A stretch of DNA of 35,852 bases, from contig CAINVI010000089.1 in NCBI GenBank assembly GCA_903854075.1, positions 1 to 35,852 of the forward strand. Reading direction: 5' to 3'. Both the position numbers and the translations under genes were made by a program. Shown here piece by piece: positions 4,276 through 8,206 of the stretch. The stretch comes from Candidatus Pollutiaquabacter sp. (GTDB lineage Bacteria; Bacteroidota; Bacteroidia; AKYH767-A; 2013-40CM-41-45). The stretch's first letter is position 1. Each line of letters begins with the position of its first letter. The notes below the pieces were generated by a model. That model was not told the origin of the DNA. It worked only from the letters and a program-made list of their open reading frames with translations, and did not search any database.

Positions 4276-6201
4276 CTATTTGTTCGTAAGAACTGGCTCT
4301 CCCACGAGTCGACGGACGGCCTGTTTAATGGCAGCGACATCGAAATGACACTCCGCATACAACTCCTTCTGCTCACCGTGTTCGATAAATTCATCCGGAA
4401 TTCCGAGACGGGTAATGGAGGAGGTATAATTGTTATCAAGCATGAACTCCGCGACCGCCGTTCCAAAGCCACCCTGAATACAACCGTCTTCGACCGTGAT
4501 TACTTTCTTAAACTTTGAAAATACTTCGTGCAATAATTCGGCATCGAGTGGCTTCACAAAACGAATATCATAGTGTGCAGGATTAAATCCTTCTTCCTGT
4601 AATTCAGCACAAGCTTTAACAACGAAATTTCCGGGATGACCAAAGGATAAAATAGCTACTTCTTCCCCATCCTTAATCTTTCGTCCTTTGCCGATCGGCA
4701 GTTTTTTCATCGGCTGTTTCCAGTCGATCATAACACCGTTTCCACGCGGATAACGAATGGAGAACGGAGCATTGGTCTCCGGCAACTGAGCCGTATACAT
4801 AAGATCGCGTAACTCCTCTTCGTTCATCGGAGCCGAAACAATCATATTCGGAATACACCGGAAGTAGGCAATATCGAACGCTCCGTGGTGAGTGGGCCCG
4901 TCGGCACCGGCGAGTCCGCCGCGATCCAGGCAGAAAACCACATGCAAATTCTGCAGGGCAACATCGTGTACCACCTGATCATACGCACGCTGCATGAACG
5001 ACGAATAAATATTACAGAACGGCACCATACCTTGCGTTGCCATTCCGGCGGAGAAGGTCACTGCATGCTGTTCGGCAATACCAACATCAAAGGCGCGTTC
5101 CGGCATCGCTTTCATCATGATATTCATGGACGATCCCGAAGGCATCGCCGGTGTGACTCCGATGATTTTCGGATTCTTCTCGGCTAATTCCACCAACGTA
5201 TGTCCGAAGACATCCTGATATTTCGGAGGTTGCGGAGCAACTACTGCCGGCTTGAAAATTTCGCCGGTAATTTTATCGAACAGCCCTGGCGCGTGCCACT
5301 TGGTCTGGTCTTTTTCAGCAAGTTCATACCCTTTACCTTTCACCGTTAACACGTGAAGGATTTTCGGACCGGGAATATCGCGAAGATCTTTCATCACTTT
5401 GACCAGACGATTCACATCATGACCATCGACAGGTCCGAAATAACGGAAGCGTAAGGATTCAAAGAGATTACTTTGCTGTAGCAAGGTTGTCTTGATTCCA
5501 TTTTCCACTTTCGCCACAATCTCTTGCGCGTTAGGGCCGAACTTGGAAATCTTGCCCAGCATTTTCCAAACTTCGTCTTTGACTTTGTTGTAGGTATGCG
5601 AAGTGGTGATATCGGTAAGGTATTCCTTCAGCGCCCCGACATTCGGGTCGATACTCATGCAATTGTCGTTCAGCACTACCAACAGGTTGGAGTTCTCCAC
5701 ACCGGCATGATTGAGTGCTTCGAAGGCGAGCCCGGCAGTCATAGCTCCATCACCGATTACCGCGATATGCTGTCGATCGGTTTCTCCCTTTAAGCGGGAA
5801 GCAACGGCCATACCCAAGGCGGCAGAAATGGAAGTGGATGAATGTCCTACACCGAACGTATCGAATTCACTTTCGCTGCGCTTGGGAAATCCACTGATGC
5901 CTTTATAGATTCGGTTGGTATGAAAAATGTCGCGACGACCGGTCAGGATTTTATGCCCGTAAGCCTGGTGGCCAACGTCCCAAACCAGCTGATCGTAAGG
6001 AGTTTTGAAAACATAATGTAACGCTACTGTAAGCTCCACAACACCCAAGGAAGCTCCAAAATGGCCTCCGTTTACGGAAACTACATCAATGATAAAGTCG
6101 CGCAGTTCGCGACTCACCTGTTCCAGGTCGCGTTCGGGAAGTTTCCGGAGATCTTCCGGAATCGTAATTCCCTTCAATAGGTTTCCTGGTGTTTGTTCCA
6201 T
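4276..6201 (-). CDS. dxs: 1-deoxy-D-xylulose-5-phosphate synthase
   Basis: Motifs GGHFGASLGVVELTVALH, WDVGHQAYGHK, GDGAMTAG...LNDN (TPP binding), DVGIAEQHAV, DGPTHHG. Start moved to MEQTPG (ATG 6201), just downstream of a TAnnTTTG element. Confidence 0.97.
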   Translation of the reverse strand: MEQTPGNLLKGITIPEDLRKLPERDLEQVSRELRDFIIDVVSVNGGHFGASLGVVELTVALHYVFKTPYDQLVWDVGHQAYGHKILTGRRDIFHTNRIYKGISGFPKRSESEFDTFGVGHSSTSISAALGMAVASRLKGETDRQHIAVIGDGAMTAGLAFEALNHAGVENSNLLVVLNDNCMSIDPNVGALKEYLTDITTSHTYNKVKDEVWKMLGKISKFGPNAQEIVAKVENGIKTTLLQQSNLFESLRFRYFGPVDGHDVNRLVKVMKDLRDIPGPKILHVLTVKGKGYELAEKDQTKWHAPGLFDKITGEIFKPAVVAPQPPKYQDVFGHTLVELAEKNPKIIGVTPAMPSGSSMNIMMKAMPERAFDVGIAEQHAVTFSAGMATQGMVPFCNIYSSFMQRAYDQVVHDVALQNLHVVFCLDRGGLAGADGPTHHGAFDIAYFRCIPNMIVSAPMNEEELRDLMYTAQLPETNAPFSIRYPRGNGVMIDWKQPMKKLPIGKGRKIKDGEEVAILSFGHPGNFVVKACAELQEEGFNPAHYDIRFVKPLDAELLHEVFSKFKKVITVEDGCIQGGFGTAVAEFMLDNNYTSSITRLGIPDEFIEHGEQKELYAECHFDVAAIKQAVRRLVGEPVLTNK

Positions 6202-6218
6202 GTTGGCGGGTTGGTTCA

Positions 6219-6226
6219 CAAATATA
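6219..6226 (-). promoter_or_regulatory. -7 promoter element of dxs
   Basis: TATATTTG on the minus strand, 17 nt upstream of ATG 6201. Confidence 0.65.
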
Positions 6227-6422
6227 GCCAATTTCGAGGGATTGTGGTGAAGTACCGGCTTCGAAATGTTCGTTTTGGGAGCAGAATCAAAGGCCTGCGT
6301 TTGTCCTCCTGAAGAAGTACCTCCGAAAACTCCGTGCGTAACGGCGGCAGGATCCAAGTTATTGCGGCGTTTCATCCCATTAACAACACGATAACACGAA
6401 AAAAGTTTGTCCGGAAAAGGCT

Positions 6423-6560
6423 GAAAAGAGTTGGCCAGCTCTCCAAAGAGAGGGCGCTTCAGGGATTCCCCAAAGCGCCCGTCCCGGCTCCACACGAAAA
6501 CTGACTGATTACTATCGTAACACAACCCGCGGCGGGGCTGCGCAGTAATGGCCTATTCTC
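6423..6560 (-). ncRNA. Structured non-coding RNA, probable Bacteroidota 6S-like RNA (alternatives: sRNA or dxs leader)
   Basis: The ends pair (GAG..GGCCA / UGGCC..CUC). Internal stems: AUUACU/AGUAAU, GCGCAGCCC/GGGUUGUGU, GGGCGCUUUGGGG/CCCUGAAGCGCCC and CUCUC/GAGAG. G-U pairs favour the minus strand. A near-consensus TTGCTTTG lies 4 nt upstream and UUUU lies at the 3' end. The resemblance to the 6S-Flavo 5' end is from memory and unverified. Confidence 0.65.
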
Positions 6561-6586
6561 GGTACAAAGCAAATTACTTTTTCTCT

Positions 6587-6623
6587 ATTTATAAAATCTA
6601 TTTTTTTTATAGTTACATTGATA
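6587..6623. promoter_or_regulatory. Putative OxyR-type binding site between the ncRNA and oxyR
   Basis: CTAT-N7-ATAG at 6598..6612 is the central half of the ATAG-N7-CTAT-N7-ATAG-N7-CTAT consensus. The outer tetramers are degenerate. Confidence 0.4.
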
Positions 6624-6631
6624 GTGTCTAT

Positions 6632-7576
6632 ATGAACCTACAACAACTCCACTACATCGTAGCGGTCGATACCTACCGCCACTTCATTACGGCAGCGGAT
6701 AAATGTCACGTTACGCAAGCCACGTTGAGCAGTATGATACGCAAGCTGGAAGATGAATTGGGTGTTCTATTGTTCGATCGCAGTCGACAGCCGGTGGTGC
6801 CGACCGCTATCGGCGAAAAAATAATTGCACAAGCACGCCGAATTCTGAAAGAAAGCGGACGGATGAAAGAACTCATCGCCGAGGAGAAAGGCATCATTGC
6901 CGGCGTACTGAAAATAGGAATTATTCCAACACTGGCACCCTACCTACTGCCGCTATTTGTTGAGCGTTTTCTGAAAAAATATCCTGCTGTTAAACTCATC
7001 ATCAACGAAGCTAAAACCGCTGAACTGATCCGTCAACTGGAAGCACAGGAGCTGGATGCCGCATTGTTGGCCACACCACTGAATAGTAGTACACTGAAGG
7101 AGTCTCCGCTTTTCCTGGAGCCATTTTCAGTATATGCCTCTGCAGGAGAAACGGTATTGAAGAAAAAGTATGTTCTCGCATCCGACATCGACGTCAACCA
7201 TCTCTGGATGTTACAGGAAGGCCATTGCTTTCGGGACCAGGTGGTGAACTTATGCGCGTTACATAAAAAGGATCCAACAGAAGTATCGCTGGAATTTCAA
7301 GCCGGAAGTTTTGAAACACTGATCAAGATGGTCGATGTGAATTCCGGAATAACCATTCTTCCCGAACTGGCGACAAAAGACCTGCAGCGGAAGCAAAAAA
7401 ATAACCTTCGCCAATTTCGTGCACCAGTTCCCTCCCGCGAAATCAGTTTAGTGACGTATAGACACTTTGTAAAAGAAAAAATGTTGGACGTTTTGCGCAC
7501 CACGATTCTAGAAGCGCTGCCAGCTTCCCTAAAAGTGACCAACAACAAAAACATCACTGCCCTGAAAACCATGTAA
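6632..7576 (+). CDS. oxyR: Hydrogen peroxide-inducible LysR-family regulator OxyR
   Basis: LysR HTH (MNLQQLHYIVAV...VTQATLSSMIRKLEDELG), GIIPTLAPYLLP, and the redox pair LQEGHCFRDQVVNLC (C199/C208 equivalent). Start set at ATG 6632. Confidence 0.92.
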   Translation: MNLQQLHYIVAVDTYRHFITAADKCHVTQATLSSMIRKLEDELGVLLFDRSRQPVVPTAIGEKIIAQARRILKESGRMKELIAEEKGIIAGVLKIGIIPTLAPYLLPLFVERFLKKYPAVKLIINEAKTAELIRQLEAQELDAALLATPLNSSTLKESPLFLEPFSVYASAGETVLKKKYVLASDIDVNHLWMLQEGHCFRDQVVNLCALHKKDPTEVSLEFQAGSFETLIKMVDVNSGITILPELATKDLQRKQKNNLRQFRAPVPSREISLVTYRHFVKEKMLDVLRTTILEALPASLKVTNNKNITALKTM

Positions 7577-7608
7577 ACAAGGAGCACACTTCCTATACTC
7601 TTCGCAGA

Positions 7609-8028
7609 TCAGATTTCACCGGCCTTCAGTAATCTACGAATCAGCCGCCAGTAGGCCTGACCGTAATCGACAAAGACCTCCTCGCCTGCTTTCAATTTAC
7701 GAGTGGTTGCAATAAAACAACGTCTCCCTTTGGTGATGAACTCTGAATTATTCCGGCATCCCGGGGCGCGATTTATGCCGCGAGCATCATTTGCATAACG
7801 ACCAAAAGAGGAACGATAATGTAAGCCGTTGATGGCCCACGAATTATTCAACTTAAAAATATAGCCGTTGTAACCATCTTCATCTTTGACTTCCTTCCAC
7901 GGTTGCAAACGTCCTTTGTATTCTGTCACCCAGCCGCCTTTCGGAATCTCAACCGTAGTAAACAATCCTTTTCCTGCACCGGGAATACGAGAACGTTTGA
8001 TAGCAAGATGGCGAGCGTAAGTTTTCAT
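7609..8028 (-). CDS. SET domain-containing protein (putative lysine methyltransferase)
   Basis: SRIPGAGKGLFT, EYKG, GRYAND, N..F, ATTRKLKAGEEVFVDYG. TATATTTG at 8040..8047 supports the start at ATG 8028. Confidence 0.88.
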   Translation of the reverse strand: MKTYARHLAIKRSRIPGAGKGLFTTVEIPKGGWVTEYKGRLQPWKEVKDEDGYNGYIFKLNNSWAINGLHYRSSFGRYANDARGINRAPGCRNNSEFITKGRRCFIATTRKLKAGEEVFVDYGQAYWRLIRRLLKAGEI

Positions 8029-8206
8029 CGATAGAATGGCAAATATAACCTGCAAGTTGAGAACAGAAAAATTCCCGGGGGCGATTATATGCTTTTCCTT
8101 TCTTCACTGATCAACTCCAAGTCTGCGCAGCGAACTGGGCCTGTTGATTTATCTTTGTAACGGTATACATCTACTATCGACAATGGAAATGCTATCCCAA
8201 CACCCT

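Follow-up and report, generated by a model that had tools for sequence, protein, structure and literature searches.

A candidate OxyR-linked small RNA in the oxyR-dxs spacer of Candidatus Pollutiaquabacter sp.

The divergent genes oxyR and dxs of Candidatus Pollutiaquabacter sp. are separated by a 430-nt spacer that contains a GC-rich island at positions 6423-6560, which raises the question of whether this island encodes an RNA of its own and, if so, to which of the two genes that RNA belongs. The window analysed here is the whole stretch of 35,852 nt (contig CAINVI010000089.1) from a draft genome of 2.7 Mb in 399 contigs (G000), sequence of which occurs in riverine, estuary, and freshwater metatranscriptome runs. 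An earlier note had proposed a free-standing RNA gene on the minus strand, either a divergent 6S RNA or a new family. In outline, a free-standing minus-strand gene of a family outside Rfam is still the best single reading, whereas the 6S option has fallen away. Our preferred reading, held tentatively and at less than even confidence, is that the minus-strand unit is an OxyR-driven, terminator-bounded sRNA of ~116 nt that works like OxyS but is not a member of the OxyS family.

The oxyR-dxs spacer and its predicted promoter

The island is flanked on one side by oxyR, the gene of a LysR-type peroxide sensor (plus strand, 6632-7576, ATG at 6632) that is divergent from the candidate RNA, and on the other side by dxs (minus strand, canonical start at 6201, end at 4276; TIGR00204, 794 bits). 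A SET-domain gene (7609-8055) lies beyond oxyR as seen from dxs. The top NCBIfam match of the oxyR product was the OxyR profile with 232 bits, which does not reach the equivalog cut-off of 329; all 14 of its PDB sequence matches at E ≤ 1e-20 were OxyR-type regulators, and its motif GHCFRDQVVNLC aligned to the redox-cysteine region of 4x6g. Judged by these protein comparisons, the LysR-type regulator of the window is of the true OxyR type. A BLAST search of 61 related genomes recovered the candidate only from a sister species (G003), where it occupies the same oxyR-dxs position; the OxyR proteins of the two species are 72% identical.

Next to the oxyR start codon lies a putative OxyR operator (6593-6631) with four hexamers, ATAGAC, ATCAAT, ATAAAA, and ATAGAT, which were read by eye. 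In an alignment of 19 oxyR upstream regions, comprising 17 related family loci and those of G000 and G003, these hexamers appeared as a degenerate form of the ATAGAT, ATCTAT, ATAGAA, and ATCTAT of the relatives. G000 and G003 agree well in this stretch, and boxes of the ATAG/CTAT type also abut the oxyR ATG in the related family loci, where oxyR is divergent from catalase, katG, dps or, in three cases, a gene for a small membrane peptide.

The predicted promoter of the candidate (minus strand, 6565-6596) is of the Bacteroidota type, with a -33 element TTTT (6596-6593), a 20-nt spacer, and a -7 element TTGCTTTG (6572-6565). Seventeen of the 19 loci carry the pattern TTT[GCT]-N20-nWnnTTnG at an offset of 33-39 from the oxyR ATG, and the offset is 35 in both G000 and G003. 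The pattern matches the Bacteroidota promoter, -33 TTTG and -7 TAnnTTTG, as given in the available text of PMC7366714. An offset of 35 places the predicted start near 6560, which is the 5' end that the earlier note had given to the RNA. The -7 element that it had named is present but only near-consensus: the second position is T in G000 and G003 instead of the consensus A found in all 15 other loci with the promoter, and the -7 region is poorly conserved between the two species. The promoter may thus be weak or decayed, judging from its sequence.

Two side observations concern the relatives. The OxyR operators of the family (L005-L021) are very regular, ATAGAT-N3-ATCTAT-N6-ATAGAA-N3-ATCT(A/G)T, and are directly followed by the -33 TTTG belonging to the promoter of the divergent kat, katG, or dps gene. 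At L007, L011, and L013 (genomes G028, G035, and G021), oxyR is divergent from the gene of a membrane peptide of ~45 residues with the motif KVGL.GFLFFL.KG, which may be a member of the OxyR regulon; at L011 and L013, a ~100-nt leader of GGTTG repeats and a small hairpin with a T8 run lie upstream of the peptide gene.

Fold, strand, and predicted terminator of the candidate

The island has a G+C content of 57.2%, compared to 46.7% for the window and 21.1% for the adjoining 6561-6631. The minus-strand sequence as quoted in the earlier note was confirmed, and so were its two main hairpins: the long interrupted one is predicted at 6549-6508 and the 13-bp one is present at 6480-6452. Its closing stem, formed by the 5' end and 6431-6423, did not hold up, as ViennaRNA paired the 5' end with part of the segment claimed to be unpaired, and neither this stem nor the 5-bp hairpin CUCUUUGGAGAG after the 13-bp hairpin has a counterpart in G003. 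Both the minimum-energy and the centroid folds consist of two separate hairpins plus a linker. Compared to dinucleotide shuffles, the minus-strand fold showed a modest gain, with z = -2.89 for the 138 nt of the earlier note and z = -3.55 for 6562-6440, and the G003 RNA gave z = -4.83.

The predicted RNA spans 6445-6560 on the minus strand (~116 nt), its start being taken from the -7 box and its end from the U-rich tract; the length predicted for G003 is ~135 nt. In stem-loop 1 (minus strand, 6508-6549), AUUACU and AGUAAU close a GC-rich hairpin with three G-U pairs. The G003 stem-loop 1 has an unrelated AU-rich interior, and its 6-bp helix ACUAAG/CUUAGU ends directly before a stretch that is invariant between the two species. 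In these fold models, the two RNAs appear to follow a common plan of a variable stem-loop, a closing helix abutting the invariant stretch, and then a terminator. Reading the unit for small open reading frames revealed no ATG, and a frame beginning with GTG runs open in G000 but not in G003.

The strand preference that the earlier note drew from G-U pairs was borne out. Three such pairs occur in the long hairpin and two to three in the 13-bp hairpin, and their positions open in the plus-strand fold, where they turn into A-C mismatches. A functional plus strand, for example as a long 5' UTR of oxyR, is a very improbable alternative: this strand also folds better than its shuffles (z = -2.41), but it has no U-run after the hairpin. 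Moreover, a TAnnTTTA-like box, seen by eye ~25 nt before the oxyR ATG in the relatives and G003, would put the oxyR start site close to the gene. The weaker plus-strand fold, the opening of the G-U positions, and the missing plus-strand U-run make the minus strand the sensible one.

The 13-bp hairpin (minus strand, 6452-6480, loop of 3, extendable to 6485-6447) has the make-up of an intrinsic terminator, a GC-rich stem directly before a U-rich tract. Nine of its 13 pairs are G-C and it is followed by TCTCTTTG; the tract UCUCUUU (6445-6451) lies directly 3' of it, and the arrangement is kept in G003 with UUUCUCUUUU. In G000 this tract is short and broken up (UCUCUUUGG). The hairpin has a free energy of -23.1 kcal/mol and the extended stem one of -28.6 kcal/mol. 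Terminator-like sites are not in excess in the surrounding 20 kb (24, compared to 21.2 ± 4.6 in shuffles), and this hairpin is by far the strongest of them, the other 23 having 5-11 pairs.

The hairpin was compared between the two species in a model-guided alignment, because a MAFFT alignment missed it: there, the 3' arm was shifted by one column, the RNAalifold consensus lost the hairpin, and the result was uninformative. With the model-guided alignment, pairing holds in 24 of 25 cells, and in two of the 13 pairs both bases are replaced (G-C to A-U, and G-U to U-A). The earlier note had asked for homologues and covariation; one sister species was found, and with only two species the covariation test has no power, 127 of 500 shuffles reaching the observed values.

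The same note had pointed to the 6S RNAs of Bacteroidota. A scan of 6150-6700 against all 4227 Rfam families at E ≤ 10 had RUF20, with 13.9 bits, as its sole match, no family reached its gathering score in the window, and the G003 region gave only noise. Neither 6S (RF00013) nor 6S-Flavo (RF01685) was thus among the matches at E ≤ 10. The candidate resembles these RNAs as a small structured Bacteroidota RNA with its own predicted promoter, but it forms no rod with a central bubble, a doubt that the note itself had voiced. It is also tied to oxyR and occurs in 2 of 9 genus, 2 of 54 family, and 2 of 146 order genomes, a patchy distribution unlike that of a housekeeping 6S RNA. A divergent 6S-like RNA that binds RNA polymerase would have in its favour that none of the nine genus genomes has a recognised 6S RNA. 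We rejected it on the lack of a model match, the two-hairpin fold, and the patchy distribution, and consider its probability close to negligible.

As for 6S RNA in the genus at large, RF00013 matched none of the nine genus genomes, compared to 5 of 14 control genomes, and RF01685 had no match in the whole G000 genome, a search that was silent in all control genomes too. A 6S RNA of the genus, if it exists, lies outside the current models, as tried with RF00013 on the nine genomes and with RF01685 on G000.

An invariant stretch and a locus that follows oxyR

Between the two hairpins lies the proposed seed, UCAGUCAGUUUUCGUGUGGAGCC (minus strand, 6486-6508; TCAGTCAGTTTTCGTGTGGAGCC as DNA, 6508-6486), an exact 23-nt run between G000 and G003. 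The two genomes are far apart at silent positions, with four-fold degenerate sites saturated at identities of 30/96 in oxyR and 64/159 in dxs. The exact runs in the oxyR-dxs spacer are 30, 23, 19, 11, 11, and 10 nt long, and the longest in the oxyR gene, with 20 nt, is shorter than the 23 nt of the candidate. In the partition-function folds of the predicted transcripts, the 3' half of the stretch (GUGUGGAGCC) is largely exposed in G000, with per-base unpaired probabilities of 0.82-0.97, and less uniformly so in G003 (0.26-0.99). The 5' half is predicted to pair with the 5' end of its own RNA, in registers that differ between the two species. The 23-mer lacks dyad symmetry and occurs only once in the genome. 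In a scan of 6669 candidate start regions for targets of the seed, the best site had -27.2 kcal/mol, and four of eight shuffled seeds did equally well or better; exact seed complements of at least 13 nt numbered three, about the chance level.

From the sequence features, their conservation, the gene order described below, and the matching position of the promoter in the related oxyR loci, all of which are observed, we infer the following course of events, including transcription, dependence on OxyR, termination at the hairpin, and action in trans. Oxidised OxyR would bind the operator beside its own start codon (6593-6631) and activate the divergent -33/-7 promoter (6596-6565). Transcription would run from near 6560 through the variable stem-loop (6549-6508) and the 23-nt invariant stretch (6508-6486), and would end at the 13-bp GC-rich hairpin and UCUCUUU (6480-6445). 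The product, ~116 nt in G000 and ~135 nt in G003, would be a peroxide-inducible sRNA that base-pairs in trans, with the invariant stretch, mainly its exposed 3' half, as the seed. Such an sRNA would be a functional analogue of the enterobacterial OxyS with an independent origin.

The candidate has a narrow distribution. Besides G003, an exact 19-mer search of ~185,000 species-representative genomes returned two chance matches in ABC-transporter-like genes of Dehalococcoidia, and in metagenome contigs the 19-mer was found in one near-identical copy of the window (L034) and in two chance matches in coding sequence. A search of 54 family genomes with the covariance model R1 recovered only G000 and G003; a 31-bit match in G024 was discarded as a generic terminator directly after a secreted-protein gene. 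Allowing up to three mismatches, the 23-mer is carried by only two of the 146 order genomes.

The gene order of the genus shows with which neighbour the candidate is associated. The SET-domain gene and dxs are neighbours in eight of the nine genus genomes; in four, the two genes share a strand, the SET-domain gene being directly upstream of dxs at a distance of 193-351 nt, and in two the genes are divergent. G000 and G003 are the only genomes in which oxyR and the candidate lie between the two genes. The dxs upstream features that occur genus-wide, namely GAACTTT...TTGTT, an ATG or GTG start with KRRNN.HPAA.TH after it, and the TATATTTG promoter, begin only downstream of the hairpin. By this synteny and motif boundary, ~1.4 kb from ~7600 to ~6410, with oxyR, the operator, the promoter, and the candidate, behaves as one insert. 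To judge from these comparisons, the candidate unit travels with oxyR rather than with dxs.

A possible precursor of the hairpin was seen in another genus member (G005). Its SET-dxs spacer (L032, 1377-1458) scored 18 bits with the model of G000 and G003 (E = 0.0069 in 24.6 kb), while it scored 8.3 bits with the first model and was missed genome-wide, where it is not significant. The G005 hairpin (-25.7 kcal/mol) has the same UGGAGCC flank and lies ~100 nt past the stop of the SET-domain gene, on the same strand and at the same position. With the query used, no OxyR homologue was found in G005 at E ≤ 1e-40, and there is no oxyR at the SET-dxs position. This weak match points to a hairpin and a UGGAGCC flank that predate the insertion of oxyR. 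If the match is homologous, the hairpin would be an old terminator of the SET-domain gene that was cut off by the insertion of oxyR and now stands behind the OxyR-side promoter. An ancestral SET-gene terminator would fit both the birth of an sRNA by terminator capture and an insulating relic. Another origin that was tried, from a decayed kat, dps, or peroxidase gene, was rejected after both intergenic regions had been compared with the divergent sides of the 17 related oxyR loci (tblastx/blastn, best E = 1.5 and E = 0.24).

In the relic case, the stranded terminator would merely shield dxs from whatever transcripts the OxyR-side promoter makes, the RNA would be functionless, and the 23-mer would be conserved as a DNA site or for some other reason. 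We regard this explanation as rather unlikely, though by no means far-fetched. It draws on the G005 hairpin past a SET-domain gene with no oxyR beside it, on the adjacency of the SET-domain gene and dxs across the genus, on the poorly conserved -7 box that lacks the consensus A, and on the seed scans, which gave no target signal. However, a pure insulator leaves the exact 23-nt run upstream of the hairpin unexplained, given the saturation of four-fold sites; the 23-mer shows neither dyad symmetry nor a second genomic copy, and the G005 match is weak. As to how the preferred OxyR-driven sRNA came about, it is possible, if doubtful, that it is a convergent OxyS-like regulator near its birth: an oxyR cassette with a divergent promoter would have landed between the SET-domain gene and its terminator, giving the ~116-nt unit, and the 23-nt core would then have been strictly selected as a seed.

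The dxs upstream region holds several features of its own. An in-frame N-terminal extension of ~58 codons (minus strand, 6199-6375) runs from an ATG at 6375 (MKRRNNLDPAAVTHG...). Its start codon, ATG or GTG, and the motif KRR..HPAA(V/I)T are clear in six of the nine genus genomes (G000, G003, G006, G002, G004, and G005), while G008 and G001 have them in part and G007 not at all. The frame upstream of dxs is open for 61-117 codons in eight of the nine genomes, and differences within the motif fall mostly at third codon positions, which indicates translation. Dxs alignments outside the genus begin at query residue ~24-62. The extension also contains a perfect TATATTTG -7 box (minus strand, 6219-6226); it forms part of a 30-nt run shared exactly with G003, and the genus as a whole is similar there. 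The alternative start is closely preceded by GAACTTT-N15-18-TTGTT (minus strand, 6380-6407), which is conserved genus-wide with or without oxyR and may be a promoter of an alternative sigma factor or a regulator site.

Parts of 4300-7600 are present in 24 metatranscriptome runs, and in the Logan contigs of four of them (X1, X2, X3, and X6), compared over 5700-7200, coverage of dxs extended to 6191-6202 in three runs and reached 6364 in the fourth. No contig of these four runs lies on 6365-7200, which speaks neither for nor against the RNA, since contigs drop rare and short RNAs. The contig ends and the TATATTTG box would fit two promoters, two dxs mRNAs, and two protein forms.

The earlier note had offered a cis-regulatory leader of dxs as the alternative, and it still stands as a rival, although the candidate goes with oxyR and not with dxs. 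Under it, OxyR-driven transcripts from ~6560 would partly read through the hairpin into the long dxs form (start at 6375), which would couple isoprenoid supply by the MEP pathway to peroxide stress, and the 23-mer and hairpin would serve as an attenuator that responds to a protein or an RNA. The candidate and dxs are on the same strand, the hairpin lies 70 nt before the conserved alternative dxs start codon, and the weak U-tract in G000 makes read-through plausible. A hairpin and U-tract upstream of a same-strand gene are also what the terminator-based 5' leaders, attenuators and riboswitches, look like. Unlike these, the candidate matches no riboswitch aptamer or leader family in Rfam and follows oxyR rather than the downstream gene, and no antiterminator pairing common to G000 and G003 was seen by eye or in folds, a weak result with two sequences. 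Genus members with neither oxyR nor the candidate have the long dxs form together with its upstream motifs, so dxs does not need the candidate, and a full-text literature search for OxyR and dxs returned no title with either term. We consider the leader unlikely.

Known systems and meaning

The candidate has no match in sequence or structure to OxyS (RF00035) or to any other Rfam family, and it belongs to a different phylum. What it has in common with OxyS is its setting and layout. The available text of PMC8825220 describes OxyS as divergent from oxyR, as having arisen from the 3' end of a peroxidase gene plus its terminator, and as having replaced that gene beside oxyR while keeping its place in the regulon. 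The candidate is likewise divergent from oxyR, with a putative, degenerate OxyR operator and a promoter lacking the consensus A of the -7 box in the shared intergenic region; its predicted ~110-135 nt comprise stem-loops, a linker, and a predicted intrinsic terminator at the end; and it takes the position that a peroxide-defence gene holds in the relatives. Its terminator, however, may derive from the neighbouring SET-domain gene, whereas that of OxyS came from the peroxidase gene.

Compared to the intergenic sRNAs of Bacteroides such as GibS (PMC7366714, as far as its available text goes), the candidate comes from the same phylum, has a predicted promoter of the same type, -33 TTTG and -7 TAnnTTTG, and is likewise built from hairpins, a linear stretch that is conserved, and a predicted terminator. 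In that work, an intergenic sRNA counted as high-confidence if it had its own start site and a Rho-independent terminator. There is no homology between the two groups, the BTnc049 model giving 14.4 bits on the G003 copy against a gathering score of 81.9, which is noise. The Bacteroides sRNAs were detected by dRNA-seq and Northern blot (PMC7366714), whereas the candidate is known from its sequence alone.

Regulatory RNAs of Bacteroidota are poorly known, and full-text literature searches yielded, among the papers listed, no OxyR-linked sRNA in this phylum. If the unit were only a relic terminator, it would be an ordinary finding. If it is expressed, the pairing of oxyR with a divergent sRNA would have evolved more than once, and the locus would offer a concrete case of a new sRNA entering an existing stress regulon, a case open to testing, since catalase, katG, or dps still occupies this position in related genera. 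Should it be a convergent OxyS-like regulator born by capture of the SET-gene terminator, the candidate would be the first OxyR-dependent sRNA described in Bacteroidota and the second example of an sRNA that originated by terminator capture into the regulon of a transcription factor, set apart from OxyS by the different source of its terminator.
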